DNA from: an uncultured bacterium
GTDB taxonomy: Bacteria > Verrucomicrobiota > Kiritimatiellia > PWTM01
Direction: 5' to 3'
NCBI GenBank assembly: GCA_938010045.1
Contig: CALLFZ010000036.1
Coordinates: 38,801 to 102,800 of the forward strand
DNA length: 64,000 nucleotides
In this document: one piece after another, positions 9,295-54,600 of the stretch
Position numbering within the stretch: position 1 is the stretch's first letter
How the letters are laid out: each line of letters begins with the position of its first letter
The notes under the pieces: model-generated
What the model was told of the DNA's origin: nothing
What the model saw: only the letters and a program-made list of their open reading frames with translations
Databases searched by the model: none
Position numbers and translations under genes: made by a program

Positions 9295-9377
9295 CCGTTT
9301 ATCCTCCTTGTGACGACCCGCCTCGCGCACGCCGACGAGCCGACCTACAACTCACATGACACTCGGGCGCCCCACAA

Positions 9378-13891: not shown

Positions 13892-14317
13892 TGTTCCTTT
13901 GTCCTCCCGCTGGTGCCTCCGCCGCCCTCCACACCATCCGCGGCGAACCACACAGCTTCCAGAGTCAGTATGCGTGGGCATCGCGAGAAACTCAATCCGA
14001 CCGCAACGATGCGGAACCGTTGGCGCGGCGGAGAACGAGCGGCAAACAAAAACGTCGGTGACGGGTGGCGAACATCGTTGACCCCAACGCCCCCGCGCTA
14101 TACGCCGGTTGTTCCCGCCGATCCCCTAAAACACGAAATTTTCGATCCTTCAGGCCTCGACGCGGGTACAGGCTGCGGGAGATTAGCCATTCGCAGGCCT
14201 TGGATGGTCGGGTTCCGCCCCGACCCTACGGCCAATGCCTATGCTTCGGCAATTCGCGGACGGCGGGGACGCCGTCCCTCCAATGAAATCGCCAGCCTCT
14301 GTCCCGAGCCTCGCGCG

Positions 14318-28095: not shown

Positions 28096-28268
28096 CTGCC
28101 ATGGTCCGCACATCGAGTCGGCATCTGCGATCACCTTCCTGGTTCCCCCTGGGGCCGCCGTGACCATATCGCGTGGCCACGCCGTACGCCAGATGTTGCA
28201 GCCCACCGCGACCGCTCGACGACGCCCGATGGCCCGTCGTATCGTGTGTCGGCCAAGGATGTTTGACG

Positions 28269-30326
28269 ATGAGCGTTGGTTCCCTCCGAGTACCGGTCTT
28301 CTCTCTGGCGGCCCTCCTAGGTTCGAACCTGACGGCCTTGCCCAGCGTCTCGCTGGTCCACGCTCCCGATGCGCCACCGGCAGTGGGCCACGGTGCGGAG
28401 ATCCGCCGTACGGAACACGGCGGCTGGCGCGTGATGCCACAACCCAGGGCACGCTATCCGGGCATTGCGTGGCAGCCCTCAGTTCCTTGGAACCTTGCCG
28501 CGCGTTCCGCGCTGGTCGCGCGGGTCGTGAACGTCTCGGATGGATCCATCCGCGTCTCGTTGCGGCTTGACGACCTCTCCACCGCGGTCGGCCCCTCGAC
28601 GCTTCAGCACCGGATCGTACTCGCCCCCGGAACCACGGGCGAAATTGCCGTGATCTTCACGACGCGCCCCTATGACACCGCCCATCCCACCCGACTGATC
28701 GGCATGCGTGGATGGCCGGGGCAGTGGACGATCGACCGTTCACGACTTACCCGCTGTCTCATTTTTGGTGAGGCACGGACGAACGCGGTCTTCGAAGTGC
28801 TGGACGTTGTGGTGGCGGGCAATCTGCGGCTAATCGCTACGAACCGTCTCTTGCCGTTCATTGACCGATTTGGACAGTTCATTCATGCGGAGTGGCCGGG
28901 CAAGGTTCGGGACGATTCGGATCTGCGGGCCAACCTTGAACGGGAGCGGGCGGAGCTGGCGCGCCATGCGCCACCGCCGGACCGCGACGAATGGGGGGCA
29001 TGGCTGGGTGGGCCGCAGTTGGCGACGGGTCGCTTTTTCCGTGTGGAGCGCCACGGCGGCCGGTGGTGGTTGGTGGCGCCGTCCGGCCGGTTGTTCTGGT
29101 CGCTCGGGGTCAACTGCGTGCGCGCCGACTCCGCAACGCCGATCAGCGACCGCGAGAGCTACTTTGCGGAACTGCCGCCACCCCACAGCGTCTTCGCGCG
29201 GTTCTACGGCCGCAGTGGAGGGGCACCCCACGGCGGGTACACCAACCGGGCCAACCGCTCCTTCGATTTCGCGGGCGCGAATCTGCTGAGGAAATACGGC
29301 GAAAACTGGACCCACGACTGGGTGGACGTCGCGCTCGACCGTTTGCGGAGCTGGGGCTGGACGACGGTCGCGAACTGGTCGGAGGTATCCGTGGGCCAGC
29401 GCCGCCGCCTGCCGTACACCTACAATGCGCACTTCGCTTCCCCGGCGATCGAGGCGACGAAAAGCGATCGGGGGGCGTTTCCCGATCCGTTCGCCGCAGG
29501 GTTTCGCGACGGCATCCGCCGCGCGATGGAGACAGCGCGCCAGGATGGTTCGGTCGGCGATCCGTGGTGCCTCGGGTTTTTCGTGCACAATGAGCTCCGA
29601 TGGGGACGCGCGGGGGAGCTGGGCGCAGCGGTGCTGCGGTCACCGGCCGCGCAGCCCGCGCGCACGGCGGCGGTCGCGCGGCTACGCGCGCGCTATGGCG
29701 GCGATCTCGCACGCCTGAATTCCGCCTGGGAGACGTCGTTCGAAGATTGGGATCGTTTGGCTCCTCCAGCCCATCCCAGCGACGTCGTCGCGAAGGATCT
29801 GAACGATCTCACCGAGATGATTGCCTCGGAGTATTTCCGTGTGATTTCGGAGGAGGTTCGGCGCGCGGCACCGGGTCAACTCTACCTTGGATGCCGCTTC
29901 GCCTGGGCCACGGACGCCGTGATTCGGGCTGCGGCCGCGCACGGCGACGTCCTCAGCTTCAACAAGTACACATGGACGCTGGACGACTTCAGGCTGCCGG
30001 AGGGTGTAGACCGGCCGGTGATCATTGGCGAGTTTCACTTCGGCGCGCTCGACCGCGGAATGTTCCACCCGGGACTGCGGGCGGCGGCGGATCAACGGGA
30101 TCGAGCGGCGAAGTTCACCGCGTATGTCGAGAGTGGCCTGCGTCACCCCAACATTGTGGGCGTGCACTGGTTCCAGTACCGGGATCAGCCGACGACTGGC
30201 CGCAGCGATGGCGAAAACTACCAGGTGGGGCTGGTGGACATCTGCGACACTCCGTATCCGGAGATGGTGGACGCGGCCCGCGCCCTCGCCGCGGCGCTCT
30301 ACCAACGGCGCGCAAGCGGACGCTGA
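28269..30326 (+). CDS. secreted clan GH-A-like (beta/alpha)8 glycoside hydrolase (GH5/GH42/agarase-like)
   Basis: Signal peptide MSVGSLRVPVFSLAALLGSNLTALPSVSLVHA. Then RFFRVERHGGRWWLVAPSGRLFWSLGVNCV, FFVHNELRW (NE acid/base-like) and VIIGEFHFGA (GE nucleophile-like). Confidence 0.5.
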   Translation: MSVGSLRVPVFSLAALLGSNLTALPSVSLVHAPDAPPAVGHGAEIRRTEHGGWRVMPQPRARYPGIAWQPSVPWNLAARSALVARVVNVSDGSIRVSLRLDDLSTAVGPSTLQHRIVLAPGTTGEIAVIFTTRPYDTAHPTRLIGMRGWPGQWTIDRSRLTRCLIFGEARTNAVFEVLDVVVAGNLRLIATNRLLPFIDRFGQFIHAEWPGKVRDDSDLRANLERERAELARHAPPPDRDEWGAWLGGPQLATGRFFRVERHGGRWWLVAPSGRLFWSLGVNCVRADSATPISDRESYFAELPPPHSVFARFYGRSGGAPHGGYTNRANRSFDFAGANLLRKYGENWTHDWVDVALDRLRSWGWTTVANWSEVSVGQRRRLPYTYNAHFASPAIEATKSDRGAFPDPFAAGFRDGIRRAMETARQDGSVGDPWCLGFFVHNELRWGRAGELGAAVLRSPAAQPARTAAVARLRARYGGDLARLNSAWETSFEDWDRLAPPAHPSDVVAKDLNDLTEMIASEYFRVISEEVRRAAPGQLYLGCRFAWATDAVIRAAAAHGDVLSFNKYTWTLDDFRLPEGVDRPVIIGEFHFGALDRGMFHPGLRAAADQRDRAAKFTAYVESGLRHPNIVGVHWFQYRDQPTTGRSDGENYQVGLVDICDTPYPEMVDAARALAAALYQRRASGR

Positions 30327-34902: not shown

Positions 34903-35466
34903 CTACGGCGGCGGCGCGGCCGACGTCTCGTCTCTGTTCCGACGTTCCTTCTCGCTGCGGATTTTTTCGCTCGTTTCGAGCAGGGCCGCCCACTTCACAG
35001 GGTCGCGCGCGAGCAATTCCAGTGTCTTCGCCGAGGCGCTAACCGCCACCACGCGATGACCCGAGGTGATCCTCACCACATAGCCTTCCACGCGACTACC
35101 GCCCTCGACCCGCATCCATGTGCCATACTCGGATACCGATGCCGTCAGCTCCTTCGAAGTTTTTTGCACCTCAATGAGCTTGGCCGGCTCCAGTTCGATC
35201 GGCTCGCGTCCCTCGTCAAAAATCCACAACTGTCCGCTTCGGTTGCTCTTCGCGAGGAAAAACCACTCCAGCGTCGCGCGTCCGGCCGCACCCATGCCGC
35301 GAACCTGGATGCTGATCGAGACGGACCGCGTATAGTCCCGCGCGTGCGTCCCCCACGAGGGCGCGACCACCTGCGAGCCACGCGCCGTGGACACCCGGCT
35401 GACCTTCAGATACGCCTGCGGCTCCTGCGCCCACACACAGAACGCCACGGCCGCCAGCAAAGCCAT
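34903..35466 (-). CDS. exported hypothetical protein
   Basis: Signal peptide MALLAAVAFCVWAQEP; no recognisable domain. Confidence 0.35.
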   Translation of the reverse strand: MALLAAVAFCVWAQEPQAYLKVSRVSTARGSQVVAPSWGTHARDYTRSVSISIQVRGMGAAGRATLEWFFLAKSNRSGQLWIFDEGREPIELEPAKLIEVQKTSKELTASVSEYGTWMRVEGGSRVEGYVVRITSGHRVVAVSASAKTLELLARDPVKWAALLETSEKIRSEKERRNRDETSAAPPP

Positions 35467-36555
35467 GACCCACAGCCTACTTGTCGCCCCCACCCTGCTG
35501 CCAGCCGTGCTCATACTGTTGCCCCGCTAGACCACCGCAGGCCCAGTGGCCACATGATAGCCGCCACGGAAACGTCCGGCAATCCAAAAACCTTCGGCCG
35601 CGCCACCGCCCCAGCTTCTTCACCGCCTTCAGCGCCGTCGGCACGCCGACCTACCTCGTGGCCCAGCTTCTCGATCCAGAGTGTCGCCCGTCACGATGGT
35701 CACCCCGCCGCTGCAGAAGGATGGGGACCGCGTTCAGAGCCCAGCTCATTGAATGGAGGCGGATGTTCTCCTTGCGATCCACTTCCCGCATGGCCCAGAA
35801 CGACGCCTGTCGCAGTCGGTGTTTGAGTCGCCGCGCGGTGTCATCATTCCGGCATTCTCTTCGTGGCGCGTTCCTCCAAGGTTCCCGCAAGATCTCGGGG
35901 CCGCCACTGAGAGAATCACGCCCCGACCGCCCGCCTACCGCACGCGATTGTCGAACGTCGACATGTTCAACGATGCCACTGGCCAAAGAGTCTCCCAATG
36001 CCGGCCGAAGCCTGCGCGAGGAGCTGCGCACCGCCTCAATTCGGTTCGGGAACGAACGGCGGGATTCACCGAACGACAGCGCAGGGAAGAACTCGTGTGA
36101 TACCGTGCCAACCGTATCGCCGCCACCCCCTCGTGTCCGGACGCTCGCCGCGCCCGCTGCTACCGGTCGAGGAAGTCAGGCTCACAAAGGGATACGTTTT
36201 CCGTGGCGCTCAGACTCGTCGCGCGACCACGTTCGTACCTTCTTTGAACTCACGTCCCAATTCTCACAGGAATCGTGGAACACACACTCACGCTGAGACC
36301 GCAGCCAAAGCCGGCCGCCGCGTGCACTGTCTGCCTGCCCACTGCCCTGGCGGCGCCGGGTCCGGTCATACCCAACCTCGACCGGATCACCGCGCGGGAG
36401 TGAATGCTGCGAGAAACTATGCCGATGGCGGCACCCGCGCGTTGGCAGTGCCACGACTCACGACCTCTTCCGCTCATCCCAACCTGAGCGCCCCGAGAGA
36501 CAGCGAAAGCTCGATCTTGACGCCCAACCTCTCAAACTTGATCATGAACAGCAGC

Positions 36556-36649: not shown

Positions 36650-37741
36650 TCACGCGACACGCAGCGGCATAATCACATACAGAAACGCCTCATCCGCCTT
36701 CAGGACGCCCGGCGTGTCGACATCCGAAATCTCGAAATAGACTTCGTCCGAAACGAGTGTTTTTAGCGGGTCCATCAGAAAATCAGGATTGAACGGGATT
36801 GTCAGCGCCGGGCCGTTGTACTTCACGGGCACCACCTCGCGGGCCTCGCCGACATCAGCAGACTCGCAGAACACCTCCATTTGCCCATCGCTAAAACGGA
36901 GCTGAACAGAATTGCTCGTATCGCTGGTCACAAGCGATACGCGCCGCAGCGCGTTCAGGAATCCCTCCCGACTGAGGGTCACACGGTTGCCGGTGCGCTT
37001 GGGTATCACCTGGCGATAGTTCGGGAACTTCCCTTCGACTTGCGAACTGAACAACATCACGTTGCCGCCGTCCAGCGCCATCTGCTTCCCGACCGCCATC
37101 AACACCACGGAACCTTCACCATCAAGAATACTGATCATTTCTGAAGCGGTACGCGCCGGCACGATCAACGACGCTTCCCGGCGGTCGCCTTCCACTTCCT
37201 GTTCAACCAACGCCAGCCGCCGTCCATCCGTTGCGACCGCCGTCACGCGCGACTCCGAAATTTCGATCAGCACCCCGCTGAGCACCTCACGCGAGAGGTC
37301 CTTCGAGGTGGCATAGACCGTTCGCTGCAACATGCCGCGCAGCGCCCGCCGGTCCAGCGTGCACGACACCGCCCCCTCTAGCTTCGGCGTAACCGGGAAG
37401 TCCTCGGCCGAGATTCCATTCAGGCGAAAACGGACCGCATCGGACACCAGCGTCGCAGAATGCCGTTCGTCCGACGAAATCTGAATCTCCTCCCCCGGCA
37501 TTTCCCGGACGATTGGCAGTAAGCGCTTCGCCTCGAGCGTTGTAGCGCCCTCTTCCGTGATCGTGGCCGCCACGCTTGCGCGGATGGTCATCTTCATGTC
37601 GCTGCCGGTGAGCGTCAGGGTTTGTCCTCGACTCTCGATGAGGACGTTGGAGAGAACCGGCAACGTGGAACGGCTCGCGATCGCGGGGAGAACCGTTTGG
37701 AGTGCCTGCAAGAAATCGGTTCGTGCGACGGTGAGTTTCAT
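36650..37741 (-). CDS. dnaN: DNA polymerase III beta sliding clamp
   Basis: MKLTVARTDFLQALQTVLPAIASRSTLPVLSNVLIE, three-domain clamp architecture, C-terminal MPLRVA. Confidence 0.9.
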   Translation of the reverse strand: MKLTVARTDFLQALQTVLPAIASRSTLPVLSNVLIESRGQTLTLTGSDMKMTIRASVAATITEEGATTLEAKRLLPIVREMPGEEIQISSDERHSATLVSDAVRFRLNGISAEDFPVTPKLEGAVSCTLDRRALRGMLQRTVYATSKDLSREVLSGVLIEISESRVTAVATDGRRLALVEQEVEGDRREASLIVPARTASEMISILDGEGSVVLMAVGKQMALDGGNVMLFSSQVEGKFPNYRQVIPKRTGNRVTLSREGFLNALRRVSLVTSDTSNSVQLRFSDGQMEVFCESADVGEAREVVPVKYNGPALTIPFNPDFLMDPLKTLVSDEVYFEISDVDTPGVLKADEAFLYVIMPLRVA

Positions 37742-37969
37742 TAACCGGATCTCCTGATATTCATAAATGAAGTTTGAAAGTCCACCGTAGTATGGTCGTG
37801 AATTTCGTGGCTGGCAAGCGGGCGTTGGCTTGAAAAAGCGGCTATTTTTCGCGATGGCATGGGGGCAATCCGCTGTGAATGGAGCTGTGGAAAAGCGTCG
37901 TCGGCTCCGCCGGGATCGTTCACGATCGCGTTGGATGCGTCGGAATCCACAGAAGGATTCACAGGTTGT

Positions 37970-40900
37970 TTATTGTGGCGAGCTCGTGGGACTTGGAGGG
38001 TCGGCTTCGCGCACAATGGAGCCGTTGGACTCGCTGACAACCAGGATGGAGAAACGCTGTGCGGTGGCGAGCGATGGATCCTGTGTTGAGGCATAGTCGA
38101 ATCGGCCCCGGAGGTCGGTATAGCCGTCTTTGAAGAACTTAACGGTGCCGTCGGCGAGACGGGTGTACACCTTCACATATGCTCCGGCGACAGGTGTGTT
38201 GGAATCCGCGCGGGTGAGCACAAGTTGCCCATACGTTTCCATGAGGTGGAGGCGGAGGGTATTCGCGTAGTAGGCCTGGGTTTGCCGCAGTGGACCTGCG
38301 ACGGCTTCGATCATGAGATCGAGGGAACGAAGGGCCTCAGGGATGTCAACCTGTACCGGGGAAGCGTCGGCTGGGACGTCTACGGGCATGGTGTGAGCCG
38401 GGCGGACGTGCGAGAAGTGGCGGGTGTCTTGGGTCATGAACGGGCTTCGGGAGAACAACAGCTCGAGGTCCATCGGATAGAAGTTGAGTGTGACGGACTT
38501 CAGGCGGCGGCCAGCGATCTCGATGCGGCGGCCGTTGAGGCGGAGGTCGAGGGAGGACTGTTCGGCCGCGAGCTGCTGCTGAACCAGGTCACGATTACGC
38601 GGGTCGGCCACGGTGGCTGCAGCGCCACCTTCGGCCTCGCGGATGTGGGCCAGCAGCGTCTGAACGCGGTTTCGCCAGCGAGGGACGGGGTGCTCGACGT
38701 AGTCGGAGAGGGCTCGGCGCGCCTCCTCGGGCCGGCCACGGGAAAGGGCGAGCCACGCCGTGAGGTAGTCGTACTGGAGACGCTCGGCGATACGGGCCCG
38801 ATCGGTTCGGGCAAGGAGGGCGATGCTCTCGGCGATGCGGTCCTGAAGCGCTAGATAGTAGGCTCCAGCGAGAAGGTCTTCATCGTCGGGAGCCGGTTTG
38901 TAGGCGAGGATGCGAAGAAACTGGGTCCATTGAGTCCTCAGAGCGGGGTTCTGGATGCGCGGTTCGCGTCCCATCGGATGGGCGCGGGCGTTGATGAGCG
39001 GTGAATATTCCAGGTGCTGGTAGAGGTGCCGTTCGACGGGGTTGATGCGGAGAATGGGGCATTCGAGCCAGAGTCCGCACTGGTTCGCGAATGGATGGCG
39101 GGCGAGAAATTGAGCGATGCGCGGCATGTCGTTGTGGAGGATGGAATAGGACCAGAGAGTGGCATCGAAGGCGCGGCGTCGCTCGAGGATGTCGAGGATA
39201 CGGCGATAGGCGTTCGCGTCGCGCAGTCGCCAGGCGATGTCCGCAAGGCGGATACGGTAGAGGTTCTCGCGCTCGAGGTAGGCGCAGACTTGGTCGAGAG
39301 TGGCGTTCTGGGAAATCTCGAACCATGAGGTTTGATCTGAGGGAGGCGGCTCGGCGACGACCTTGAAGTGGGCCGGCTCGGCGCGAGCGAGGACGCCCGC
39401 CTCGGAGGCAACCGTCGCAGGATGGTGGGCGAACTCGCCGGGAGCGGGGAAGTAAAAGAAGTACTCGATTGTGTCGGTTTGGTATGGTTCGAGTACTCGC
39501 GGGACGGGTTCAATGGGCAGCGGGGAGAGGGGGACGGCGCCAGCGGGGATTTGGAGGAGCACGGAGACGAAGTGTCGCTGGGCGCTGGGGTTGGTCAGCA
39601 CCACGCGGGCACCGTAGGGCACGCCGATCAGGAAGGGGCCGGTGACGTAGCGTTCGATGCGTTCCTCGCCCTCGTAACGCCAGCGGTTATCGGCCCGGAA
39701 GAAGTTCTGGGCCACGAGCAGCGGAGCCGGGCCGGGTGCTATGGGTGTGGGGCGCGTTTCACGCAGAAGCAGGATGACGGGTTGTTCGGAGCGTACGATG
39801 GTGCGGCCATCCTTGCGTTCGCGCGCAATCGGCGGCGCCTCGAATGGAAGGTCGAGAACCGCGAGCGCAAGGAGCATTTCGGTGGCGTTGGTCGTGGTGA
39901 AGAGGAGATCGGTCGAGAGGAACGGTGTCGGGTCGGGATGGGCGGCGTACTCGGCCCAGAAGCGGCCCGCGGGGACGAGGGAGGCGGTCTGCGCGGCCTG
40001 GGGCTGGCGGTAGTACGCTTGCTCAGCGAGCTCCTGGGGCATGTCCGGTGCACGGAAGAACGGCTGCGCCGCCTTTCGCTCGGCGGAGAGATCTTCAAGG
40101 AGGAACAAATCCGCATGGCTTCGACGGAGCGGTTCGTCCATTTCACGGTCGGCGGCCACTGCGCGCGCTCGCTGTTCAGCCATCGCGCGGGGGCCCGCGG
40201 CCTTGGGTACGGTCGCCGGGGCCGGTGGAGATGCGGCCAGCGCTCTGAGCGCGTCGGCATTGAGGGCCTCCGTCGCCGCTTCGACGTGCCGTTCACTCTC
40301 GGCGGCGCCGTCGGTCGCCGCGGTGGGTGAAAGGTCGCCAGCCAGAAAGAGAAACCGCCAGTAGAGGTCGGCTTTGGGGCGCGGAGTCTGAGCGGCCATG
40401 TCCGCAAGGTCGCGGGCAAGAGCCTCGCGTTGCGCCGCGGGCAAACGTCGAGCCAGCAGGGCCTTTTCGGCCGCGTTCAGTCGATCATAGTGCGCGGGTT
40501 CCAGCCAGCGGGTCAGGTCGCGGCCGAGCAACCATTCGTCTACGAAGGTCTTCTCACGCTTGTTGGCCAGATAGGGTGCAATCACGGCGTCGAAAAAGGG
40601 GCGATCCTTGTGGTACAGGAAGAGGTGCAGCTCGTGGCAGGCGAACCGCGAATAGAGTTCGCGTTTCTGATCTGGTGTGAGAGCGGGCCAGCGGGTGATG
40701 AACTCGAACTCCGGAAGCACGCTGTTCTTGGTGAGCGCGGAGTAGAAGGAAAAGACCTTCGGAATCGAGTCGGCCGCCGAGACCACGGCTCCCTCGCCGA
40801 CTTCGCGCGTTTCGCCCGGCAAAAGCGGCACGATGTCGAAATGCGGCGCATGGGGCGTGGCGGGGTCGAACGGCCGTTGGAGCGCGCGAGAGGCTGTCTG

Positions 40901-43900
40901 CAGCGGTGGATTGCCGATCGGGAGAATGCGCTCGACGGCGTGACATGGATCGATCGCAAGCACGCGCAGGAACGAGTAGCCGTGAAGATCGCGCCGCGGG
41001 ATCCGGATTCGTCCCTCCGCATCGGGACGAAGGTTCAGGAGGACGGTCGCGGGCCGCGCAAGGAAGTCGAGCGCCCAGGGAGACGCACGCCGTTGCCGGC
41101 CGGATTCCTGGGGCGAAGCAGTGTCGGCGGTGGCGCGGACACCGGCCGCGGGCCCGGCACCGGTGAGTGCCGCGGCGCGGCCGGCGAAGGGGCGCCCCTC
41201 CTGCAGGCGCTCGGCTTCGATGGAGGTCGTGCGCAGCGCCCAGGGATTCAGTAGAAGTGAGGGGCGCTCGGCCATGTTGCCGATGTGTTTGGGAGCACCG
41301 CGCCGGTCGAGCACGTAGCGGAACTCGTCGCCGAGCTCGCGTCCGGACTCGTAGAAGGTTCGCGACTCGGTCCATGTGCGGGCGCGCAGGTCGGGCCATA
41401 CGGCGCCGGCGGGCAGCGAGAAGAAGTCGTCCAGCACGTAACGGCCCGCCGCCACGTGCACGCGAACGTGGGGGGCACGGCTATTGAGGCGGAACACGAA
41501 GTGGTCGGCGTCTCCCGGCTCAGGCAGGAGCTGGAGAGGCTCCATCAGCGGCGTTTCGAGCGCGCGGCGAGCGGAGAGGAGGTAGCGCCCGAACGGATCG
41601 CCCCGGGTGACGCGGACGGGGATCTCCAGCTGACGGGACCGCACGAAGAGCGAGTAGTCGCCGGGTTCCAGGCCTCGGAGTTCGAGTGAGCCGTCCGCGA
41701 TGGCGAGAGCGGCAGAGCGGTCGCGCGTATAGCGCCCTTGGCGGACTTCGAGGAGGGAGAAGTCCGACAAGGCATCGGCGGCGTTGAGCCGCTCGAGCGG
41801 CAAGCGGAGCGGCCGCCCGGCTGTGCCGTGTAACGCAGAGGGCCACCAGCAGCGGTCACGCGGGGGCGTCCAGGTGAACACGGTCGGTTGCTGGCCGTGG
41901 AACTCTCTCCACTCGGCCTCCGAGCGTGGGTCTAGGTTCGGGGGCGGCGCGGCGTCGAGTGAGATCTGGACCTGCGAGATATCGGCCAGCGGGCCGAGGA
42001 CGGCCTGGCCGCGATCGTCCGTCCGCAGTGTGGTGTGGATCGGCTGGCGTGTCCACGGATGTTGGAACTGGCAGTGCAGCGGAACGCCCGCCAGGGGCTC
42101 GCCATTTAGACCGAGGACTTCCGCAACATAGCCCTCGGAGCCCAGCGTGAGCAGAACCTGTCGGGTCGCGAGGGTTCCGAGCAGAGGCGCGACCGGGAAT
42201 TCACGCGAGGAAGTCAGCTGGACCGGCGCTGCGCCAGCGGACATGGTCTTCACGCGAGCGGAGAGTTTGACCTCGATGGATCGGGGATGACGGGGCAGCG
42301 GCACCTCCACCCGGACTTCGCGGTCAAGGGCCAACTCGGGAGAGCGTATGTTGTGCTCGGTTCGGATGTCGCGGGTGTCGGTGACGGTCACGATGAGCAC
42401 GGCCTCTTCGAGGCTGAGCGAGGCCGGGTTCACGGGCTGGCCATGGAGGGTGATCAACGGGCGCAGCGCGAGTGTGGCATTGGCCCCGGGGTGCAGGGAT
42501 TCGGCCACGATCAGCGGACGCGCGTCAAGTTCGTAGGACTCGGCGAGGTGACGGAATCGGACCAGTGAGGCGAATCCCCCGGAGTGTACGACCATCGTGG
42601 CATCGCGATCGGCATCGGGGCGGAAGGGCACAAGAATGCGGCCTTCGGCATCGGGCTCGAATTCGCGGTTGTCGAGCCAGGCGCGCGCGTCGGGAACGGG
42701 CTTCCGCGCCTCATCGAGCACGCGGAACACGTGCCCAGCGGCCGAAAGGTCTTGCAACACCTCGAGCCGGCCCTTCTGCACGAAGGCGCGGCTGCTGCGG
42801 CCCTCGCCGATAAAGTCGATCACCCATACGCCGCGTCCTTGGAGCTCCGGGAAGTCGAATGTGCGTTCGAGGCGCAGATCCTTGGGCTCGCGGAACTCGA
42901 ATTTTTTCTCCGGGAACGAGGGCGCCAGACCGTCAAGATTGATGGCGAGGTTCAAGGGCCGGCGGGTGTCGCGATAGTAGTTCAGCGTATTGATTTCATA
43001 GATCTTCACGATGAGGGTCGGGACGTTTTTGACGAACAGTTTGAGGCGGACGGGCTCGTCGGGCAGGAAGACGGGCGGATTGTCCGGCGCGAAGTCGAGG
43101 TCCACGCGTTCCTTGATCGTGCGGTACTCTTCCGGCGAGATCAGAGCGGCCCACTGCTGCGGGTCTCCAATGCCATGGACGATCTTGGTCTCGGCGAAGA
43201 CGAGTCGGAGGAATTCATCACGGACCCACGGGCGGAACTCGTCGAAGTTCGGTGCATCGCGCAGGAGCCACATGAGGTAGTGGCGGACGATCGGCTCCTC
43301 AACGCGGATCGGCGGCAGGAGCAGCTCCGCGAAAGTCGCATCGAGACGGGCGAGATACTGCGGCTGGTGCAGGGATTCACGGATGGGCTGCGGCAGGTAG
43401 GGCACGTCGCGCGGCAGCTTCAGGTATTCGATGAACCGCTCGCGGCTGGGACGACCAACCTGCAGATCGTGGACAAGTCGATGATACAGCACATTGGCCT
43501 TGAGTGAATTATGGACTGGGTCCAGGCTGCGCACGTATGCCCAGACCCGGTCGAGGTAGGCCTCGCGCTGCTGGACATCAATTTCGAGGTCGGTCTCGCT
43601 GTCGGGGACGAGGCGCGAGAGGTAGAGCGAGACGAACGCGCGCTCGTTACGGAGCTCTGGACGAAGACGGAGGAGCTCATCGAGCTGTTCGAGCGTCAGT
43701 TGCTGGTGGATCGGCAGCTGTCCGAAGGGAGGACTGTCGGCGGTGGCGAGGTCCTCGGCGATGAGCGCGACGAGGTTGGGCAGGTCGGGGCGGCGGAGCC
43801 GCCGGAGCAGGTCGCGCCGCTGCTGCGGGTTCAGAGGAAGGCGGGCCACCGAGTAAAGACCGGCGTCGGTGATCGCGGAGAGATTGGCCCGTCCGTGTAG

Positions 43901-44344
43901 CGCGGATTCGAGGAAGCGCTGTCCGGATATGAGCGTTGGGTCGAGGCGGGTGGGCAGGTCGGGGCGACGCTCGGACAGGCGGCGGCTGTGGTCGAAGGTG
44001 AGGTCCAGTTCACGGCGGAGATAGTCGAGAGTGGCTTTTGGATCGCGAGCGTAGTCGAGCAGCGCCTGGCGGTGGCGCAGCTCGCGTGCGCCCGGCGGCT
44101 CGGCGCCTTTGCGGGCGCGAATCCAGTCGTCGAGGATCGTGCGGACCTCGTTGGCGCGGCCCAGATTCTGGGCGTGCAGGGCACGGAAAAAGTAGAAGTC
44201 GTCGGTGCCGGGCACGAGGTCCGCGAGCGCCGTCTCTCGGTTGGTGGAGAAAGCGAACTGCTCGAGGAACTTGAGGTTCTGGGCGCCGCCGAAGGTGGGG
44301 ATCAACAAAACGGGCAGCCAGACTCCGACGCGACAAATGTTCAT
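37970..44344 (-). CDS. giant (2124 aa) secreted protein of unknown function
   Basis: Signal peptide MNICRVGVWLPVLLIPTFGGAQN. One uninterrupted frame with high GC3. No P-loop, thioester (CxEQ) or other signature recognised. Confidence 0.6.
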   Translation of the reverse strand: MNICRVGVWLPVLLIPTFGGAQNLKFLEQFAFSTNRETALADLVPGTDDFYFFRALHAQNLGRANEVRTILDDWIRARKGAEPPGARELRHRQALLDYARDPKATLDYLRRELDLTFDHSRRLSERRPDLPTRLDPTLISGQRFLESALHGRANLSAITDAGLYSVARLPLNPQQRRDLLRRLRRPDLPNLVALIAEDLATADSPPFGQLPIHQQLTLEQLDELLRLRPELRNERAFVSLYLSRLVPDSETDLEIDVQQREAYLDRVWAYVRSLDPVHNSLKANVLYHRLVHDLQVGRPSRERFIEYLKLPRDVPYLPQPIRESLHQPQYLARLDATFAELLLPPIRVEEPIVRHYLMWLLRDAPNFDEFRPWVRDEFLRLVFAETKIVHGIGDPQQWAALISPEEYRTIKERVDLDFAPDNPPVFLPDEPVRLKLFVKNVPTLIVKIYEINTLNYYRDTRRPLNLAINLDGLAPSFPEKKFEFREPKDLRLERTFDFPELQGRGVWVIDFIGEGRSSRAFVQKGRLEVLQDLSAAGHVFRVLDEARKPVPDARAWLDNREFEPDAEGRILVPFRPDADRDATMVVHSGGFASLVRFRHLAESYELDARPLIVAESLHPGANATLALRPLITLHGQPVNPASLSLEEAVLIVTVTDTRDIRTEHNIRSPELALDREVRVEVPLPRHPRSIEVKLSARVKTMSAGAAPVQLTSSREFPVAPLLGTLATRQVLLTLGSEGYVAEVLGLNGEPLAGVPLHCQFQHPWTRQPIHTTLRTDDRGQAVLGPLADISQVQISLDAAPPPNLDPRSEAEWREFHGQQPTVFTWTPPRDRCWWPSALHGTAGRPLRLPLERLNAADALSDFSLLEVRQGRYTRDRSAALAIADGSLELRGLEPGDYSLFVRSRQLEIPVRVTRGDPFGRYLLSARRALETPLMEPLQLLPEPGDADHFVFRLNSRAPHVRVHVAAGRYVLDDFFSLPAGAVWPDLRARTWTESRTFYESGRELGDEFRYVLDRRGAPKHIGNMAERPSLLLNPWALRTTSIEAERLQEGRPFAGRAAALTGAGPAAGVRATADTASPQESGRQRRASPWALDFLARPATVLLNLRPDAEGRIRIPRRDLHGYSFLRVLAIDPCHAVERILPIGNPPLQTASRALQRPFDPATPHAPHFDIVPLLPGETREVGEGAVVSAADSIPKVFSFYSALTKNSVLPEFEFITRWPALTPDQKRELYSRFACHELHLFLYHKDRPFFDAVIAPYLANKREKTFVDEWLLGRDLTRWLEPAHYDRLNAAEKALLARRLPAAQREALARDLADMAAQTPRPKADLYWRFLFLAGDLSPTAATDGAAESERHVEAATEALNADALRALAASPPAPATVPKAAGPRAMAEQRARAVAADREMDEPLRRSHADLFLLEDLSAERKAAQPFFRAPDMPQELAEQAYYRQPQAAQTASLVPAGRFWAEYAAHPDPTPFLSTDLLFTTTNATEMLLALAVLDLPFEAPPIARERKDGRTIVRSEQPVILLLRETRPTPIAPGPAPLLVAQNFFRADNRWRYEGEERIERYVTGPFLIGVPYGARVVLTNPSAQRHFVSVLLQIPAGAVPLSPLPIEPVPRVLEPYQTDTIEYFFYFPAPGEFAHHPATVASEAGVLARAEPAHFKVVAEPPPSDQTSWFEISQNATLDQVCAYLERENLYRIRLADIAWRLRDANAYRRILDILERRRAFDATLWSYSILHNDMPRIAQFLARHPFANQCGLWLECPILRINPVERHLYQHLEYSPLINARAHPMGREPRIQNPALRTQWTQFLRILAYKPAPDDEDLLAGAYYLALQDRIAESIALLARTDRARIAERLQYDYLTAWLALSRGRPEEARRALSDYVEHPVPRWRNRVQTLLAHIREAEGGAAATVADPRNRDLVQQQLAAEQSSLDLRLNGRRIEIAGRRLKSVTLNFYPMDLELLFSRSPFMTQDTRHFSHVRPAHTMPVDVPADASPVQVDIPEALRSLDLMIEAVAGPLRQTQAYYANTLRLHLMETYGQLVLTRADSNTPVAGAYVKVYTRLADGTVKFFKDGYTDLRGRFDYASTQDPSLATAQRFSILVVSESNGSIVREADPPSPTSSPQ

Positions 44345-44641
44345 GGTCGGTTCTCCATCTCAGCGGGCCGCGATCGAGACCCGCCTCACCGAAGTATACG
44401 CCTTGGCCATCGGGTTTGTTCAGAGCGACGCGGCATGGTCGGCGGACGATGCCCGCGACGCCGACGATTCCGCCGCCTGCCCCACGGTGCTCGTTTCTGC
44501 TGTTTCACGGTGGTGCAGGGTGCAAATCGCGCCATACACTGTTTGACAAGCATTTCCACGCGCGTAGAGTGATGGGTCCGTTTTTCAGTGCCGCGTGCGC
44601 GGTGCGGGTGCGCGGCGGCCGTCGGGTCTGGGGGCGACAGC

Positions 44642-45775
44642 ATGAAGGTGTTCTGTCCAAAGGAGACGCGTGCAGGCGAGACGCGCGTCGCGGTGACGCC
44701 GGCCTCGGCGGAGCGGCTCGTGAAACTCGGCGTCAAGGTCGCCGTGGAGGCGGGGCTCGGGGCGACGATCGGCGCGTCGGACGCCGACTACACCGCGCGC
44801 GGCGCGTCGGTGGTTTCGCGCGCCGAGGGGCTGGCGACGGCCGACTGGGTCGTCCGGCTTCGCCCGCCGACGCCGGACGAGGCGGCTGCCTCACGACCAG
44901 AGTCGTACCATATCGGTTTTCTGGAGCCGTTCACGAACCGGGCCGTGGTCGAGGCGTTCGCGAAGTCGGGTGCGACGGCGCTTTCGGTCGAGCTGATTCC
45001 GCGCACGACGATCGCGCAGAAAATGGACGCGCTGAGCTCGCAGGCGAACCTCGCGGGCTATGTCGCCGTGATTCTGGCCGCGGAGCGGCTGCCGAAGATC
45101 CTGCCGATGATGATGACGCCGGCCGGAACGATCGCGCCGGCGCGGGTGCTGGTGATCGGTGCGGGCGTGGCGGGGCTCCAAGCGATCGCGACGGCGCGGC
45201 GGCTCGGCGCGCGCGTCGAGGCGTATGATACGCGCCCGGTGGTGAAGGAGCAGGTGCAGTCGCTCGGCGCGAAGTTCGTTGAGATCGACGTCGGCGAGAC
45301 GGGTCAAACGAAGGACGGCTACGCAAAGCCGCTGACTGAGGAGCAATTGGCCCGCCAGCGGGCGGCGCTGGCGCGCCACTGCGCCGAGGCGGACGTTGTG
45401 ATCACGACAGCGCAGGTGTTTGGGCGTCGCGCGCCGCGGATCATCACCGCGGAGATGCTCGACGGCATGCGGCCGGGCTGTGTCGTGGTGGACCTCGCGG
45501 TGGAGACGGGCGGCAATGTGGAGGGCGTCGAGCCGGACCGCGAGATCGAGCGGAAGGGTGTGAAGATTGTGGGGCTCGCGAACCTGCCGGGCCGCGTTCC
45601 GGTGGCGGCCAGCCAGATGTACGCGGCAAATCTCGCGAATTTCATCGAGCATTTCTGGGACCGGAAGGAGACGTCATTCCGTTGGTCGGAGGAGGATGAG
45701 ATCCTGAAGGGCATGACGGTGACGCGGGCGGGCCGGGTGGTGCACACTGCGGTTCGCGAGGCGCTCGGATTGTAG
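44642..45775 (+). CDS. pntAA: NAD(P) transhydrogenase alpha subunit part 1 (dI)
   Basis: MKVFCPKETRAGETRVAVTPASAERLVKLG...VLVIGAGVAGLQAIATARRLGARVEAYD (Rossmann); alanine-dehydrogenase-like. Confidence 0.88.
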   Translation: MKVFCPKETRAGETRVAVTPASAERLVKLGVKVAVEAGLGATIGASDADYTARGASVVSRAEGLATADWVVRLRPPTPDEAAASRPESYHIGFLEPFTNRAVVEAFAKSGATALSVELIPRTTIAQKMDALSSQANLAGYVAVILAAERLPKILPMMMTPAGTIAPARVLVIGAGVAGLQAIATARRLGARVEAYDTRPVVKEQVQSLGAKFVEIDVGETGQTKDGYAKPLTEEQLARQRAALARHCAEADVVITTAQVFGRRAPRIITAEMLDGMRPGCVVVDLAVETGGNVEGVEPDREIERKGVKIVGLANLPGRVPVAASQMYAANLANFIEHFWDRKETSFRWSEEDEILKGMTVTRAGRVVHTAVREALGL

Positions 45776-45786
45776 GGAGGTGCGCG

Positions 45787-46077
45787 ATGCTGGGGCTTCT
45801 ATTTTTTGTGTTCGTGCTGGCGGTGTTCCTTGGGCTCGAGTTGATCTCGAAGGTGCCGTCTCAACTGCACACGCCCCTGATGAGCGGTTCGAACGCGATT
45901 TCGGGAATCACGATCGTCGGCGCGCTCGTGGCGGCGGGTCAGCCGCAAGGCGGTGTGATCGTGACGGTGCTGGGCACCATCGCGGTCGCGGCGGCGATGA
46001 TCAACGTGGTCGGCGGCTATCTCGTGACCGACCGAATGCTGGGCATGTTCAGGCACAAGGACGGAGGCGCAAAGTAA
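45787..46077 (+). CDS. pntAB: NAD(P) transhydrogenase alpha subunit part 2 (membrane)
   Basis: GGAGG precedes the ATG. Three TM helices; GITIVGALVAAG motif. Confidence 0.85.
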   Translation: MLGLLFFVFVLAVFLGLELISKVPSQLHTPLMSGSNAISGITIVGALVAAGQPQGGVIVTVLGTIAVAAAMINVVGGYLVTDRMLGMFRHKDGGAK

Positions 46078-46080
46078 GCC

Positions 46081-47517
<1,437 letters not shown>

Positions 47518-47766
47518 CCCGGCCGCCGTCCACCCGACGCCCCCACTCTGACACCCGCGGGCCGATGGCGCTGTGGATTGTTTTTGAGGGGTAAGACGAA
47601 GGGTCTGGATGCGGAGAGGAGAGCGCGTGTGCCTATCCTCGATCGAACGGCTCGCTGTAACTCTGGCGCTCTGCCGCCGGAGGGCCGGCCGATGTCGCAT
47701 CTAAAAATTTGATTCCGCGGACTCTGCCCTCCTTGCTGGTCACCTAGATCGCCCCCCACCAATTTT

Positions 47767-49824: not shown

Positions 49825-50922
49825 TCAGTAGGAGCGTCCGCCGACGCCCTTGGTGCCCTTCTTGATCTCGCGCGCGGGTTCCTTCGGCCGCAGCGCGCGC
49901 ACGGCGGCGCCGGCGCGCCACATTTCCGAGTCACGAATTGCGGCCAGCTCCTTCGCGACGCGCTCCGCATAGCCTGGCCGGCTGCAAGTGCGGATCACGT
50001 GTAGCGCCTCCGCGCCGCTCTTCACGCGGCGGTACAGCTCGCGGAACACCGGCAGCGTCGCTTTTTTGAAGCGGGGTTTCCAGTCGAGCGCGCCGCGCTG
50101 CGCGGTCGCGGAGCAGTTCACAAACATCCAATCCATGCCGTTCTCGTCCACGAGCCGGATCAGGCTTTGGGTGAGCTCCTCGACGGTCTCGTTGAACGCC
50201 TCGCTCGGCGAGTGGCCGTTCGCGCGCAGCACCTCATACTGCGCCTCCATGATGCCGGCCAGCGCGCCCATCAGCACGCCACGCTCGCCGGTGAGGTCGC
50301 TCACCGTCTCGTGTTCGAACGTCGTCGGGAAGAGGTAGCCGGAGCCGATCGCGATGCCGATCGCGAGGCAGCGCTCCTCGGCGCGTCCGGTCGCGTCCTG
50401 AAACACCGCGTAGCTCGAATTGATCCCCGCGCCGCTCAGGAAGTTGCGCCGCACATTCAATCCCGACCCCTTCGGCGCGACCATGATCACATCCACGTCC
50501 TTCGGCGGCACCACGCCGGTGTGCTTCCGATAGGTGATCGAAAAACCGTGGGAGAAGTACAGCGCCTTGCCGGCGGTCAGGTGCGGTCGGACCGTCGGCC
50601 AGACGATCCGCTGGGCAGCGTCGGAGACCAGCAGTTGAATGATCGTGCCGCGCGCACAGGCCTCCTCGAGATCGAACAGCGTCTCGCCCGGCGTCCAACC
50701 GTCCGCCACCGCGCGATCCCAGTCCTTCTGAAACTGCTTCGACTGGCCCACGATCACGCGGATACCATTGTCCTTCATATTCAGGGCCTGGGCGGGCCCC
50801 TGGACGCCGTAGCCGATGACCGCCACCGTTTCGTTGTTGAGCACGCGCCGAGCCTTCGAAAGCGGAAATTCCTTCCGCGTGACCACCGTTTCCTTCACGC
50901 CGCCGAAGTCAATGATCGCCAT
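49825..50922 (-). CDS. ilvC: ketol-acid reductoisomerase
   Basis: MAIIDFGGVKETVVTRKEF, VAVIGYGVQGPAQALNMKDNG, MVAPKGSG. The upstream 330 codons of the track ORF are non-coding-like. Confidence 0.9.
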   Translation of the reverse strand: MAIIDFGGVKETVVTRKEFPLSKARRVLNNETVAVIGYGVQGPAQALNMKDNGIRVIVGQSKQFQKDWDRAVADGWTPGETLFDLEEACARGTIIQLLVSDAAQRIVWPTVRPHLTAGKALYFSHGFSITYRKHTGVVPPKDVDVIMVAPKGSGLNVRRNFLSGAGINSSYAVFQDATGRAEERCLAIGIAIGSGYLFPTTFEHETVSDLTGERGVLMGALAGIMEAQYEVLRANGHSPSEAFNETVEELTQSLIRLVDENGMDWMFVNCSATAQRGALDWKPRFKKATLPVFRELYRRVKSGAEALHVIRTCSRPGYAERVAKELAAIRDSEMWRAGAAVRALRPKEPAREIKKGTKGVGGRSY

Positions 50923-51096
50923 GACGAATATCCTTTCGTTGCGCGCGAGCTTGACCTCCGTGCCGGACCGCGCTCGCGTAACCGCCAATGCTACGCGCAG
51001 ACACCGCGTTCCGCAAACTTTGCCGCTCCGGGCGCCGGCGTTGGCGCGTTGCCGTGATTTGGCGAACCCGCACCCAACCGATAAACTGGCACTTCC

Positions 51097-51621
51097 GTGG
51101 ACGTGTTCGAGACCATGGCCGCCCGCCGCTCCATCCGGCGATTTCACCCCGACCCGGTCCCATCGCCCACGCTGGATCGCATTCTCGAGGCGGCGCGCCA
51201 AGCACCTTCGGCCGGCAACCGACAGGCCTTCGAGATCGTCGTCGTGCGCGACCCACGGCGGCGCATCGCGCTGGCTCGCGCCTGCCTCGAACAATGGTTC
51301 ATCGCGGAGGCGCCGGTCGTGCTGGTGTTCGTCGCGGCACCGGCGCGAAACCGCAGCCGGTACGGACGGCGCGGCGCAGAGCTCTACGCGGTTCAGGACG
51401 CCACAATCGCATGCGCGCACGCCCATTTGGCGGCCACGGCGCTCGGACTTGGAAGCTGCTGGATCGGCGCCTTCGACGATGCGTCCGTCTCCGAGTTGGT
51501 CGGCGTCGACGGCGACGAGCGACCTGTCGCTCTCCTTCCGATCGGCCGGCCGGCCGAAGACCCATCGCCGATGCCACGGCGACCTATCGCGGATCTGGTG
51601 CATCCCGAACGCCTGCGATGA
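51097..51621 (+). CDS. nitroreductase-family protein
   Basis: MDVFETMAARRSIRRFHPDPVP...PSAGNRQAFEIVVV...GLGSCWIGAFD. Confidence 0.75.
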   Translation: MDVFETMAARRSIRRFHPDPVPSPTLDRILEAARQAPSAGNRQAFEIVVVRDPRRRIALARACLEQWFIAEAPVVLVFVAAPARNRSRYGRRGAELYAVQDATIACAHAHLAATALGLGSCWIGAFDDASVSELVGVDGDERPVALLPIGRPAEDPSPMPRRPIADLVHPERLR

Positions 51622-51631
51622 AAGGTCTCCG

Positions 51632-54600
51632 ATGATGAGGTGCACAAAATCGTGGCTTGCCCGAGCGGGGTTGCTGTTCGCGTGGTTGGCCGCAATGCGC
51701 GCCGACGCTTCGGACACACCCGCGATAACCGCGCCGCAGCGTTTCGAGATGAGGGGCATGGTGGTGCTCGGTGCCTGGCTCGGCAACGCCGAGGATCCGC
51801 TGGCGGACGCAGGGCCGCAGGGACTTCGCCTGAAGTTGCGCGGCGGTGAGGTGGTGGAAGACGAACAGTTCGGCCGATGCCTCCTCGCGCGACGGGGCTC
51901 GCCGGATCGCCACACCGCCAGCGGCGCGCTCGCGCCACATCACTACATGCTCTCGCCCGCCGGCGCCTTTACCATCGAGGTCTGGATTTCGCCCGGCGAG
52001 GGCTGGGCCGAGACCGGTGAGGCGGTGCTGCTCGATAAGAAGTACGCGGGTCATCGCGACTATCAACTGGCCATCTCCGCTCCCGACCGCACGGGGAGGC
52101 GGCGGATCCTTGCGCACCTCGGTTTCGGCCAGGACAGCGACACGTGGACCTCCGACCCCGTGGACCTGCCGGTGGGCCGGTGGCGGCAACTGGTGTTCGC
52201 CTACAATGGCCGCGGCCAGGGCTGGTTTTTTGTGGACGGCGCCCCCGCGGGACGCGCGGAGCAACAGGGCCGGGGCGCAGTGGCCCGCGGAGACCGCGCG
52301 CTGACCATCGGCGACCGTTCCGGCAGCTACTACCGTCCATTTCCGGGCCGCCTCGCCCGGGTGCGCATCCTGGCGGGCCTCCCCGACATCCGATGGGTCG
52401 GCATCGGCGCTATCCCGGGCCAGCGCCTCGTGTTTCTGAGAGGTGAGAGTGGCGCCGTTGTGCGCGTGGCGATCTCGAACTGGAGTTTGAGAGCCCTCAC
52501 GGCGGTCCGCCTCGAAGCGCGCGCCTTCGGTTCCACCCTCGCCGCGGAATCCGCAAGGCTGGAGCCCGGCCAAGCCTGTACACTCGACGTGCCCGTTGCG
52601 GTTCATTGGCGCCCTGAAGCCTACCCGCTCGTTGTGCGCGCGCGGATCGGTGATCCGCCCGAACCCTTGGCTGAAGAGACGCTCTCCATCCGGATCGTGC
52701 CGCGGCGCCCACCGCGCATGCCGGTGGTGATGTGGGGCATCTACACGCCCGAACACGTCCTGAAGGAACTGCCGCGGCTACGCGACATCGGCTTCACGCA
52801 CTGTCTCGGCACGCCGTTGGACCCGAAGCCGCTTTGGACCGCGCGGGACGATGCGCTGCCGGTGTCGCCCTCGCGCGTCGCCACGACCCGCCGAATGCTG
52901 GATGTCGCGTGGTCGAGCAACCTCGCCGTGCTCGCCTCGCTCTCGCCCGGATCGGCGTGGAAGGACGATGTGACGAAGCTTCGCGTGGATCCCGAGGGCC
53001 GGCCGATTACGAACCGCCCCAACGTCTGCGCCTCCGCGCCGGGCATGGAGGACTACTGCTGGCGAGTCGGTCGCGCGGTCGCGCGCGCGTGGGGCGATTG
53101 CCCGGCGTTCGACGGAGCGCTGCTGCATACCGAAGTGCGCGACGCCGCGACGATCTGCTACCACCCGCACGACCGCGAAGCGGCGCGCCGAGCCGGCTTC
53201 GCCTCGATCCCAACCGAGCCCACGAAAAGCGGTTGGCGCTGGGATCGGGTGCCTGACTTTCCGCCCGCTCGCATCGTGCCCGACGACGAGCCGATGCTTG
53301 CCTTCCTGCGCTGGTGGTGGAAGCACGGCGACGGCTGGAACGCGCTGAACACAGCGCTCGCGCGCGGCCTGCGGGAGGGCGGTGTGAAGCCCGGTTTCTG
53401 GACGTTCCATGACCCCGCCGTGCGCGTCGCCAGCGTCTGGGGCAGCGGCGGCGACGTGGATGTGCTCTCGCACTGGACCTACTCCAACCCCGACCCCATC
53501 CGCATCGGCCTGGCCACCGACGAGCTCTTTGCCATGGCCGCCGGTGCCGCGCGCCCGACGCGCGTGATGAAAATGACCCAGATCATCTGGTACCGGTCCC
53601 AGACTGCGCCCGCCCACACCGGCGACGTCGCGCGCGCGGCCGCTCTCTCGCCGTGGGAGGACACGGACCCCGACGCAAAGTTTCTTACGATTTCGCCCGA
53701 CCACCTGCGCGAATCGTTCTGGTGCAAAATCTCACGGCCGATCGCTGGCATCATGTACCACGGTTGGCAGGCGCTGGTGCCGACCGACGAGAAGGGGGCC
53801 TACCGCCATACCCATCCCGGCACCATGACCGCGCTGCGCGAACTGCTGCGCGGCGTCGTCGAGCCTCTGGGACCGGCACTCCTGCAGATCGGCGACGCGC
53901 CGCGCGATGTCGCGATGCTTGAAAGTTTCGCGGCGCAAATGTGGTATGCCGGCCGGGGCACCTACGGTTGGGGCCGCGGCTGGGCCGCCGACCTGTGGCA
54001 CGCCATCACGTGGGCCCACCTCGAGGCGGACATCCTCTACGACGAAACCGTGCTGCGCGACGGCCTCGACCGATATCGGCTGTTGCTCCTTCCCGATTGC
54101 GATGTGTTGACCACCGGCGTGGCTGCGCGCATCGCCGCGTTCCAGAGCCGGGGTGGGCTCGTCGTCGGCGACGACCGCCTCGCGCCCGGCATCCACCCGG
54201 ATATCCAGCTTCCGGTCTTTGAACGGACCGGCCGCGCCGACGCCGACCAGGCCGCGCTGATCGCGCTCGGCCGGCGCCTGTTGGACGAACTCGGCGACCG
54301 CTATCGCCGCCGGCTCTACACCACCTCGCCCACCGTCATCCCGCGCCTCCGCCGCCACGGTTCGACCGACTACGTCGTTTTGGTCAACGATCGGCGCACG
54401 TTCGGGAACTACGTCGGCCGCTACGGCCTTGTGATGGAGGATGGCGTCCCTGACTCCGCCGAGGTGCGGCTGCAGCGCGCCAATGGCCACGCCTACGATC
54501 TGGTGACACACGCCGCGATCCCGCTCACCCGCTCAGAGGGCGAGGTGAGTTTCTCGGTGAATCTCGGCCCCGCCGATGGACGAATCGTGATGATCAGCGA

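Follow-up and report, generated by a model that had tools for sequence, protein, structure and literature searches.

What kind of protein is encoded by the 6.4-kb open reading frame (ORF) that lies beside dnaN in a kiritimatiellial genome, and what might it do for the cell? The question arose from a 64,000-nucleotide stretch of DNA from an uncultured bacterium of the Kiritimatiellia (Verrucomicrobiota; contig CALLFZ010000036.1, positions 38,801 to 102,800), which is referred to here as the window. An original prediction, made from the letters of this DNA, had described the product of the ORF as a secreted giant protein of 2124 aa with no recognizable motif. We find that the protein belongs to a very large, strictly length-conserved, and unnamed family that extends across the Planctomycetes-Verrucomicrobia-Chlamydiae (PVC) group and also occurs in Hydrogenedentota and Ozemobacteraceae, and that its chain is predicted to fold into helical modules and serial β-sandwich domains whose best structural neighbors are the macroglobulin (MG) domains of alpha-2-macroglobulin (A2M) and complement proteins. 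Our tentative interpretation is that the protein acts in the cell envelope as a non-catalytic binding or scaffold protein, resembling A2M only in its build, and we hold any particular mechanism with low confidence.

An exported protein and its family

The single clean frame described in the original prediction was confirmed exactly. An uninterrupted coding sequence of 2124 aa plus stop runs from an ATG start on the minus strand (37970..44344), and it is matched in the databases along its length. A GGAG Shine-Dalgarno sequence (44353-44356, minus) lies 8 nt 5′ of the ATG, and a putative σ70-like promoter, TGAACA-18-TATACT (44393..44422, minus), identified as a consensus match only, is located about 50 nt 5′ of it. 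The ORF is a genuine gene, because more than 866 database proteins match its product at E ≤ 1e-3 in a word-indexed search. A complete 2,120-aa family member was also present in a eukaryote transcriptome assembly (a EukProt TRINITY contig), presumably as a planctomycete contaminant; finding a full-length homolog in such an assembly provides incidental evidence, in the form of full-length mRNA, that the family gene is transcribed.

Secretion through a Sec signal had likewise been proposed, and the comparison of homologs bears this out. The N-terminus, MNICRVGVWLPVLLIPTFGGA followed by QN, has the n-h-c layout of a Sec signal peptide of the signal peptidase I (SPase-I) type, which would span aa 1-21 (44282..44344, minus) with cleavage predicted between GGA and QN. 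Across the homologs inspected (35 close, 19 distant), the leader differs in sequence but is always hydrophobic and ends in small residues, and the mature N-terminus directly after it is strongly conserved, with the pattern (Q/G)EIG(Y/F)xExFxLAxDR..L(V/I)PGT. We found no lipobox in the protein, no further hydrophobic segment beyond the leader, and no anchor or sorting motif. The protein is thus predicted to be Sec-exported and soluble, without a membrane anchor, and its location is therefore most probably periplasmic. The mature form has a computed mass of ~238 kDa and a computed pI of 6.6.

The original prediction also spoke of a dark-matter protein, which is apt in that the protein is unassigned to any family by sequence, but it is no oddity of a single genome and belongs instead to a large PVC family. 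The best 120 of the more than 866 relatives have E values of 0, align over ~99% of the query length, and are nearly all 2,090-2,170 aa long. When phmmer was run with aa 960-2124, 3,517 clusters (50% identity) were retrieved at E ≤ 1e-3, and 1,232 of these at E ≤ 1e-30; the best 150 clusters are mostly 2,050-2,230 aa in length, with ~20 shorter members that are probably cut by contig ends. Relatives were present at a minimum of 578 loci in GTDB contigs (one genome per species), the best 80 of which cover residues ~1-2118 at 33-47% identity. These 80 loci fall in Kiritimatiellia, Lentisphaerae/Victivallales, Verrucomicrobiales, Akkermansiaceae, Chthoniobacteraceae, Gemmataceae, Pirellulaceae, Planctomycetaceae, Phycisphaerae, Brocadiaceae, Hydrogenedentota, and Ozemobacteraceae, and a few are in bins labeled Deltaproteobacteria. 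No contig was listed twice among these best 80 of at least 578 loci, suggesting that the family gene is present in a single copy per genome. The nearest relatives with a taxon label are Kiritimatiellia metagenome-assembled genomes, at 72% identity, and the window is assigned to the same class on this basis. Cultured Anatilimnocola and Planctellipticum strains also carry a homolog, annotated, as everywhere, as "hypothetical protein." An ortholog from Planctopirus limnophila was not among the best 120 matches to a Schlesneria homolog used as query.

Conservation is near uniform along the chain. In an alignment of 82 sequences, 116 columns are at least 97% identical, with peaks of conservation at aa 1001-1040, 1241-1280, 1561-1600, and 1761-1800 and only three variable stretches (aa 801-840, 1041-1090, and 1337-1435).

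Predicted architecture and likeness to macroglobulins

At the level of sequence, the proposed lack of any recognizable motif proved correct. Searches of Pfam, NCBIfam, and PDB sequences with the giant protein gave zero matches at E ≤ 1, a profile built from 35 family sequences gave zero matches to PDB at E ≤ 10, and 22 phylogenetically spread relatives gave nothing above threshold in Pfam. A well-known family assigned throughout by domain search was the outcome named beforehand as telling against the prediction; we searched for one, and none was assigned. Matches to CarboxypepD_reg (PF13620) appeared below threshold in 6 of the 22 relatives (best E 9e-4, 19.9 bits) and reached 25.8 bits in an additional homolog, for which matches up to E ≤ 10 were admitted; since the Pfam gathering cut-off for this model is 32.3 bits, neither the query nor the relatives scanned qualify as CarboxypepD_reg-like or prealbumin-like by that score. 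Transthyretin, bMG3 (E 0.067), and ANAPC3 gave faint matches in single family members. No tetratricopeptide repeat (TPR) sequence model (Pfam clan CL0020) matched the giant protein, and no known catalytic domain was recognizable in it. The CxEQ thioester motif is absent: none of the eight cysteines (positions 4, 758, 832, 1134, 1236, 1687, 1756, and 1762) precedes xEQ, with C1236 standing in the context CHEL and C1756 in the context CGLW. Neither a BLAST self-comparison nor an all-against-all hhalign comparison of 17 domain segments detected significant internal repeats. A full-text search of the literature, including PMC3444138, returned nothing on the family. We conclude that the giant-protein family and its architecture are undescribed in the libraries and texts searched, while the individual folds are familiar ones.

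Structure was predicted as two models, each from a 50-sequence alignment, covering aa 1-1060 (predicted local distance difference test [pLDDT] 79.9, predicted template-modeling score [pTM] 0.72) and aa 1085-2124 (pLDDT 74.4, pTM 0.48). In total, the models predict three helical modules that are at least partly TPR-like and about eleven β-sandwiches of the macroglobulin/prealbumin type, in agreement with the MG/A2M-like and alpha-helical-solenoid leads that the original prediction had put forward. All of the following segments are encoded on the minus strand. The mature chain would open with an all-helical, TPR-like or solenoid module (aa 25-412; 43109..44272), modeled with pLDDT mostly between 85 and 95, against which about six β-sandwich domains (aa 413-1005; 41330..43108) are predicted to pack. 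A pTM of 0.72 makes the domain packing in this model confident, which suggests that the N-terminal half may form a compact multidomain body rather than beads on a string. Its end holds aa 998-1040 (41225..41353), where conservation within the family is highest, with the sequence pattern YESGRxIGDEYRYxLxR...RPGLLLNPW and a mean column identity of 0.78.

The remainder of the chain is divided by two linkers that are disordered according to the models. Linker 1 (aa 1041-1093; 41066..41224) is variable in sequence in the family alignment and steady in length, at 49-61 aa, and is followed by a predicted β-sandwich domain (aa 1094-1192; 40769..41065) and a compact helical domain (aa 1193-1336; 40337..40768; pLDDT ~90). 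The latter carries the motif YSKYACHELxFFLxxKD and the invariant residues H1237-E1238, D1247, K1262, D1269, N1290, and E1293. Linker 2 (aa 1337-1435; 40040..40336) is hypervariable in both sequence and length; it is present in every member, measures 86-164 aa across the family, and is rich in A, G, R, E, D, and K. Beyond it, the model places three helices and two β-sandwiches (aa 1436-1668; 39341..40039) bearing the motifs FFRxDDR, LTNP, and EYFFYFP, a C-terminal helical module (aa 1669-1930; 38555..39340) that contains the conserved loop HLEYxPLVNxRAH and appears to consist of TPR-like repeats in its second half, and two terminal β-sandwiches of prealbumin/MG-like type (aa 1931-2118; 37991..38554) with the motif FFKDGYTDLRGRFDYAS.

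We compared both models with PDB structures using Foldseek. The MG domains of A2M and complement proteins were the best structural neighbors of both halves. For the C-terminal half, chains of C3b, C5, C4, and E. coli A2M filled about 40 of the 50 top places, with a best E value of 4e-8. The alignments to C3b α′ and C5 α chains extended over 800-900 columns (E 4e-8 to 1e-4), and that to E. coli A2M, from MG7 to the C-terminus, extended over 672 columns (E 5.5e-4); glycoside hydrolase family 2 (GH2) and fibronectin chains were also among the matches of this half, at ~5e-4. Among Ig-like folds, the macroglobulin type therefore appears to be the nearest to the predicted sandwich domains, and their order is loosely colinear with that of A2M. 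Serial MG-type β-sandwich domains, a trait of the A2M superfamily, are thus predicted in the giant protein at the level of fold only.

In contrast to the fold comparison, sequence methods did not connect the family to A2Ms. The A2M-family Pfam models (MG2 PF01835, A2M_BRD PF07703, A2M PF00207, TED PF07678, bMG3 PF11974, and others) matched neither the query nor any of the 22 diverse relatives at E ≤ 1; as a positive control, relatives of E. coli YfhM carry 11 A2M-family Pfam domains each. When the family profile was aligned to YfhM with hhalign, the best probability was below 1% (P 0.08), in what was a weak test, as the YfhM profile had an effective number of sequences (Neff) of 1.3. This profile was shallow because only relatives at least 83% identical to YfhM were retrieved. 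Nor did we find the traits of class-1 bacterial A2Ms, a lipoprotein signal and a pbpC neighbor: the signal of the giant protein is of the SPase-I type, and no neighbor is conserved across 86 loci.

Gene neighborhood and other features of the window

The gene had been placed directly upstream of dnaN and probably co-directional with it, and both points hold: dnaN, with three β-clamp Pfam domains, lies on the same strand (36650..37741, minus), 228 bp downstream of the giant gene. The weight given to this position as notable did not survive comparison among relatives. In the 72%-identical relative, the giant gene is likewise followed in order by dnaN, a 205-aa ORF, a glycogen phosphorylase gene, and an EamA gene, but at ~45% identity and below the neighbors of the giant gene are entirely different (four long contigs examined in all). 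The ORF 3′ of dnaN in the window (203 aa; 34903-35514, minus) has no Pfam match and corresponds to the 205-aa ORF in the same place on the syntenic Kiritimatiellia contig. When flanking ORFs from 86 loci were clustered, no partner occurred in more than 14 loci. The recurrent clusters were sulfatases, DUF1501 proteins together with large upstream ORFs, GFO/IDH/MocA oxidoreductases, and extracytoplasmic function (ECF) sigma factors; these belong to hugely expanded paralog families, their distance and orientation vary, and we rejected them as partners and attribute their presence to chance. The giant gene appears to stand alone.

A functional coupling to dnaN or replication, for example through a shared operon, would be favored by the common strand, by the order kept in the closest relative, and by the lack of a terminator-like site in the 228-bp gap. 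It is already contradicted by the synteny data, the adjacency being absent in all examined relatives at 50% identity or below. In addition, the spacer gives dnaN a promoter-like site of its own and a cluster of DnaA-box-like sequences, and the position of dnaN is uninformative on function, since the replisome is out of reach of an exported protein. We give such a coupling almost no credence and conclude that the dnaN adjacency is incidental and without functional weight.

The spacer itself, from the stop of the giant gene to the start of dnaN (37742-37969), is GC-poor (0.55). It holds the only perfect match to the DnaA-box consensus (TTWTNCACA) in the 64-kb window, TTTTCCACA (37886-37894, minus), along with three or four degenerate copies recognized by eye (TGTGAAT, TGTGGAT, ATTCACA) and an AT-rich stretch directly 5′ of the dnaN ATG. 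The window ORFs that were scanned include no dnaA gene. A DnaA-regulated promoter of dnaN is one possible identity of the spacer, and a part of an oriC is another.

Near the same place, at 37.6-38.0 kb, the GC skew of the plus strand rises from about -0.15 to +0.24. It then remains between +0.12 and +0.33 until 47.5 kb, where it becomes slightly negative again. This island of positive skew (37600-47600) spans the giant gene on the minus strand and pntAB on the plus strand; as it covers genes on both strands and ends at 47.5 kb, it is local and marks no replichore-wide switch, and a replichore-wide origin behind the flip at 38 kb was ruled out on that basis. The coding strand of the giant gene is unusually C-rich, with a GC skew of -0.19 overall and -0.29 at third codon positions, opposite in sign to dnaN (+0.18) and pntA (+0.29). 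Among 82 homologous genes, whose median is -0.03, this value is an extreme one, and amino acid composition alone is an insufficient explanation for it.

Elsewhere in the window, two ORFs encode Laminin_G_3/concanavalin-A-like lectin domains (50816-54907, plus, 1363 aa; 14595-15755, minus). The 1363-aa ORF overlaps, on the opposite strand, an ORF for ketol-acid reductoisomerase that is over-extended (49825-51915), leaving the gene boundaries there uncertain. A 1158-aa ORF (5854-9330, minus) joins segments of an FAD-dependent oxidoreductase to an F5/8 type C (discoidin) domain and C-terminal HEAT repeats in an unusual fusion, and two further ORFs, of 717 aa (28173-30326, plus) and 394 aa (12797-13981, minus), have no Pfam match.

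Possible roles and comparison with known systems

Taking these results together, we lean, at somewhat less than even confidence, toward a giant protein, built of predicted binding-type folds, that has no catalytic role and serves the cell envelope as a large binding platform or cage. In such an arrangement, the β-sandwich body would provide a rigid frame, the TPR-like modules might hold a protein, peptide, or glycan partner, and the hypervariable loop could serve as a flexible tether or bait; the construction would resemble that of bacterial A2Ms, without the thioester chemistry. Several points weigh against this interpretation. Function is here read from fold types alone, in a family without an informative gene neighbor or a characterized homolog, and the choice of a periplasmic over an extracellular placement is a default assumption only. 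The long Foldseek alignments have template-modeling (TM) scores of ~0.09, so that they speak for a likeness of domain type and not for one of three-dimensional arrangement, and, with modeling done in two halves, the segment of highest conservation (aa 998-1040) fell where the first model was cut. Finally, the invariant polar residues H1237/E1238/D1247/K1262/D1269 could mark an unrecognized active site, and R1002/E1007/Y1010/R1014 and D1670/W1674/S1678/Q1679 form further clusters of this kind.

It is possible, although we think it rather doubtful, that the protein is a genuine, though extremely divergent, A2M/complement superfamily member without the thioester, comparable to class-2 bacterial A2Ms, and works as a periplasmic protease trap. 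The linker at aa 1337-1435 would then be the bait, and once it is cut the protein would change its conformation and so cage the protease. The structural neighbors of both halves and the long alignments of the C-terminal half to complement and E. coli A2M chains are consistent with such a trap, as are the loosely colinear order (six sandwiches, a disordered/helical insert, sandwiches, a helical module, and terminal sandwiches) and the resemblance of a mid-chain, always-present hypervariable disordered loop to a bait region. The sequence evidence points the other way, in that CxEQ is absent and the sole trace of an A2M Pfam model in the query and its relatives is the sub-threshold bMG3 match in one homolog; the empty hhalign comparison, weak as that test was, the extra N-terminal helical module of 390 aa, and the lack of a lipobox and of pbpC or mag-type neighbors also count against it. 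Slightly less probable still is an unrecognized enzyme, acting for instance on envelope or extracellular glycans or peptides, with an active site built from the invariant polar residues of aa 1193-1336 and/or aa 998-1040 and with the sandwiches as carbohydrate-binding or spacer modules. Invariant H, E, D, K, R, Y, N, Q, and W residues are grouped in clusters that are kept across phyla, and the conservation peaks are short and motif-like; GH2-type proteins are among the fold matches, sulfatases and glycosidases lie near some copies, and the host lineages specialize in polysaccharide degradation. The frequency of sulfatase and DUF1501 neighbors fits chance, however, and the gene appears to be single-copy and housekeeping-like, unlike the carbohydrate-active enzymes, which are expanded in these genomes. 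We consider a cell-surface adhesin, S-layer component, or fiber subunit quite improbable. Adhesins and S-layer proteins change rapidly in evolution, differ in length, and are built with tandem repeats, whereas this family holds its length and its 33-47% identity across phyla, has no sequence repeats and no anchor or sorting motif, and is predicted to form a compact body.

Apart from these alternatives, we put forward a further proposal, as speculation with only a small chance of being right. The giant protein may represent a previously unrecognized envelope component, widespread in the PVC group and also found in Hydrogenedentota and Ozemobacteraceae, that is either a periplasm-guarding, TPR-armed sister branch of A2M/complement without the thioester or a new kind of envelope machine, whose chemistry would be its own and would center on the invariant HE...D...K...D helical domain and the YESGRxIGDEYRY segment. 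Thousands of genomes from at least four phyla encode this exported protein of 2,100 residues, with its length held steady and its identity at 33-47%; its upkeep must be costly to the cell, and it therefore very likely has an important role. The family is unnamed, is covered by neither a Pfam nor an NCBIfam model, and offers neither a solved relative nor a clue from gene context. A name and a solved structure for it would free planctomycete, verrucomicrobial, and kiritimatiellial genomes of a good share of their "hypothetical protein" annotation and could reveal a lineage-typical feature of the unusual cell envelopes of the PVC group. If the macroglobulin resemblance reflects descent, the A2M/complement superfamily would gain a thioester-free bacterial branch. 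The family can be tested directly in tractable planctomycetes.

Among known systems, the membrane-coat-like proteins of the PVC group, reportedly described by Santarella-Mellwig and colleagues in 2010 as a β-propeller plus an α-solenoid, were considered and rejected: the giant protein does not have the N-terminal β-propeller followed by an α-solenoid that such proteins require. Periplasmic TPR scaffolds, such as the LpoA N-domain (4p29), LapB (7t6d), PilW (2vq2), and the BcsC TPR region (5xw7), are 200-1,100 aa long and match Pfam TPR models, unlike the giant protein, and none of them joins TPR arrays to about eleven β-sandwiches. Complement C3/C4/C5 and the insect TEP1/CD109 proteins differ from it in phylogenetic range, share 8-12% identity with it at a TM score of ~0.09, and have an anaphylatoxin domain, a C345C domain, and a thioester that it lacks. 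Some accepted members of the A2M superfamily are also without CxEQ, and a thioester-less class of bacterial A2Ms is typified by P. aeruginosa MagD. By build, the closest bacterial comparison is with E. coli YfhM/ECAM (4zjh, 4zjg, 4ziu, 4rtd) and Salmonella A2M (4u48). Relative to these, the giant protein has no CxEQ motif, no match to A2M hidden Markov models, no profile-profile signal, and no pbpC or mag-operon partners; it carries an SPase-I rather than a lipoprotein signal, and it is ~470 residues longer, with extra predicted helical parts of 390 aa at the N-terminus and 140 aa in mid-chain.

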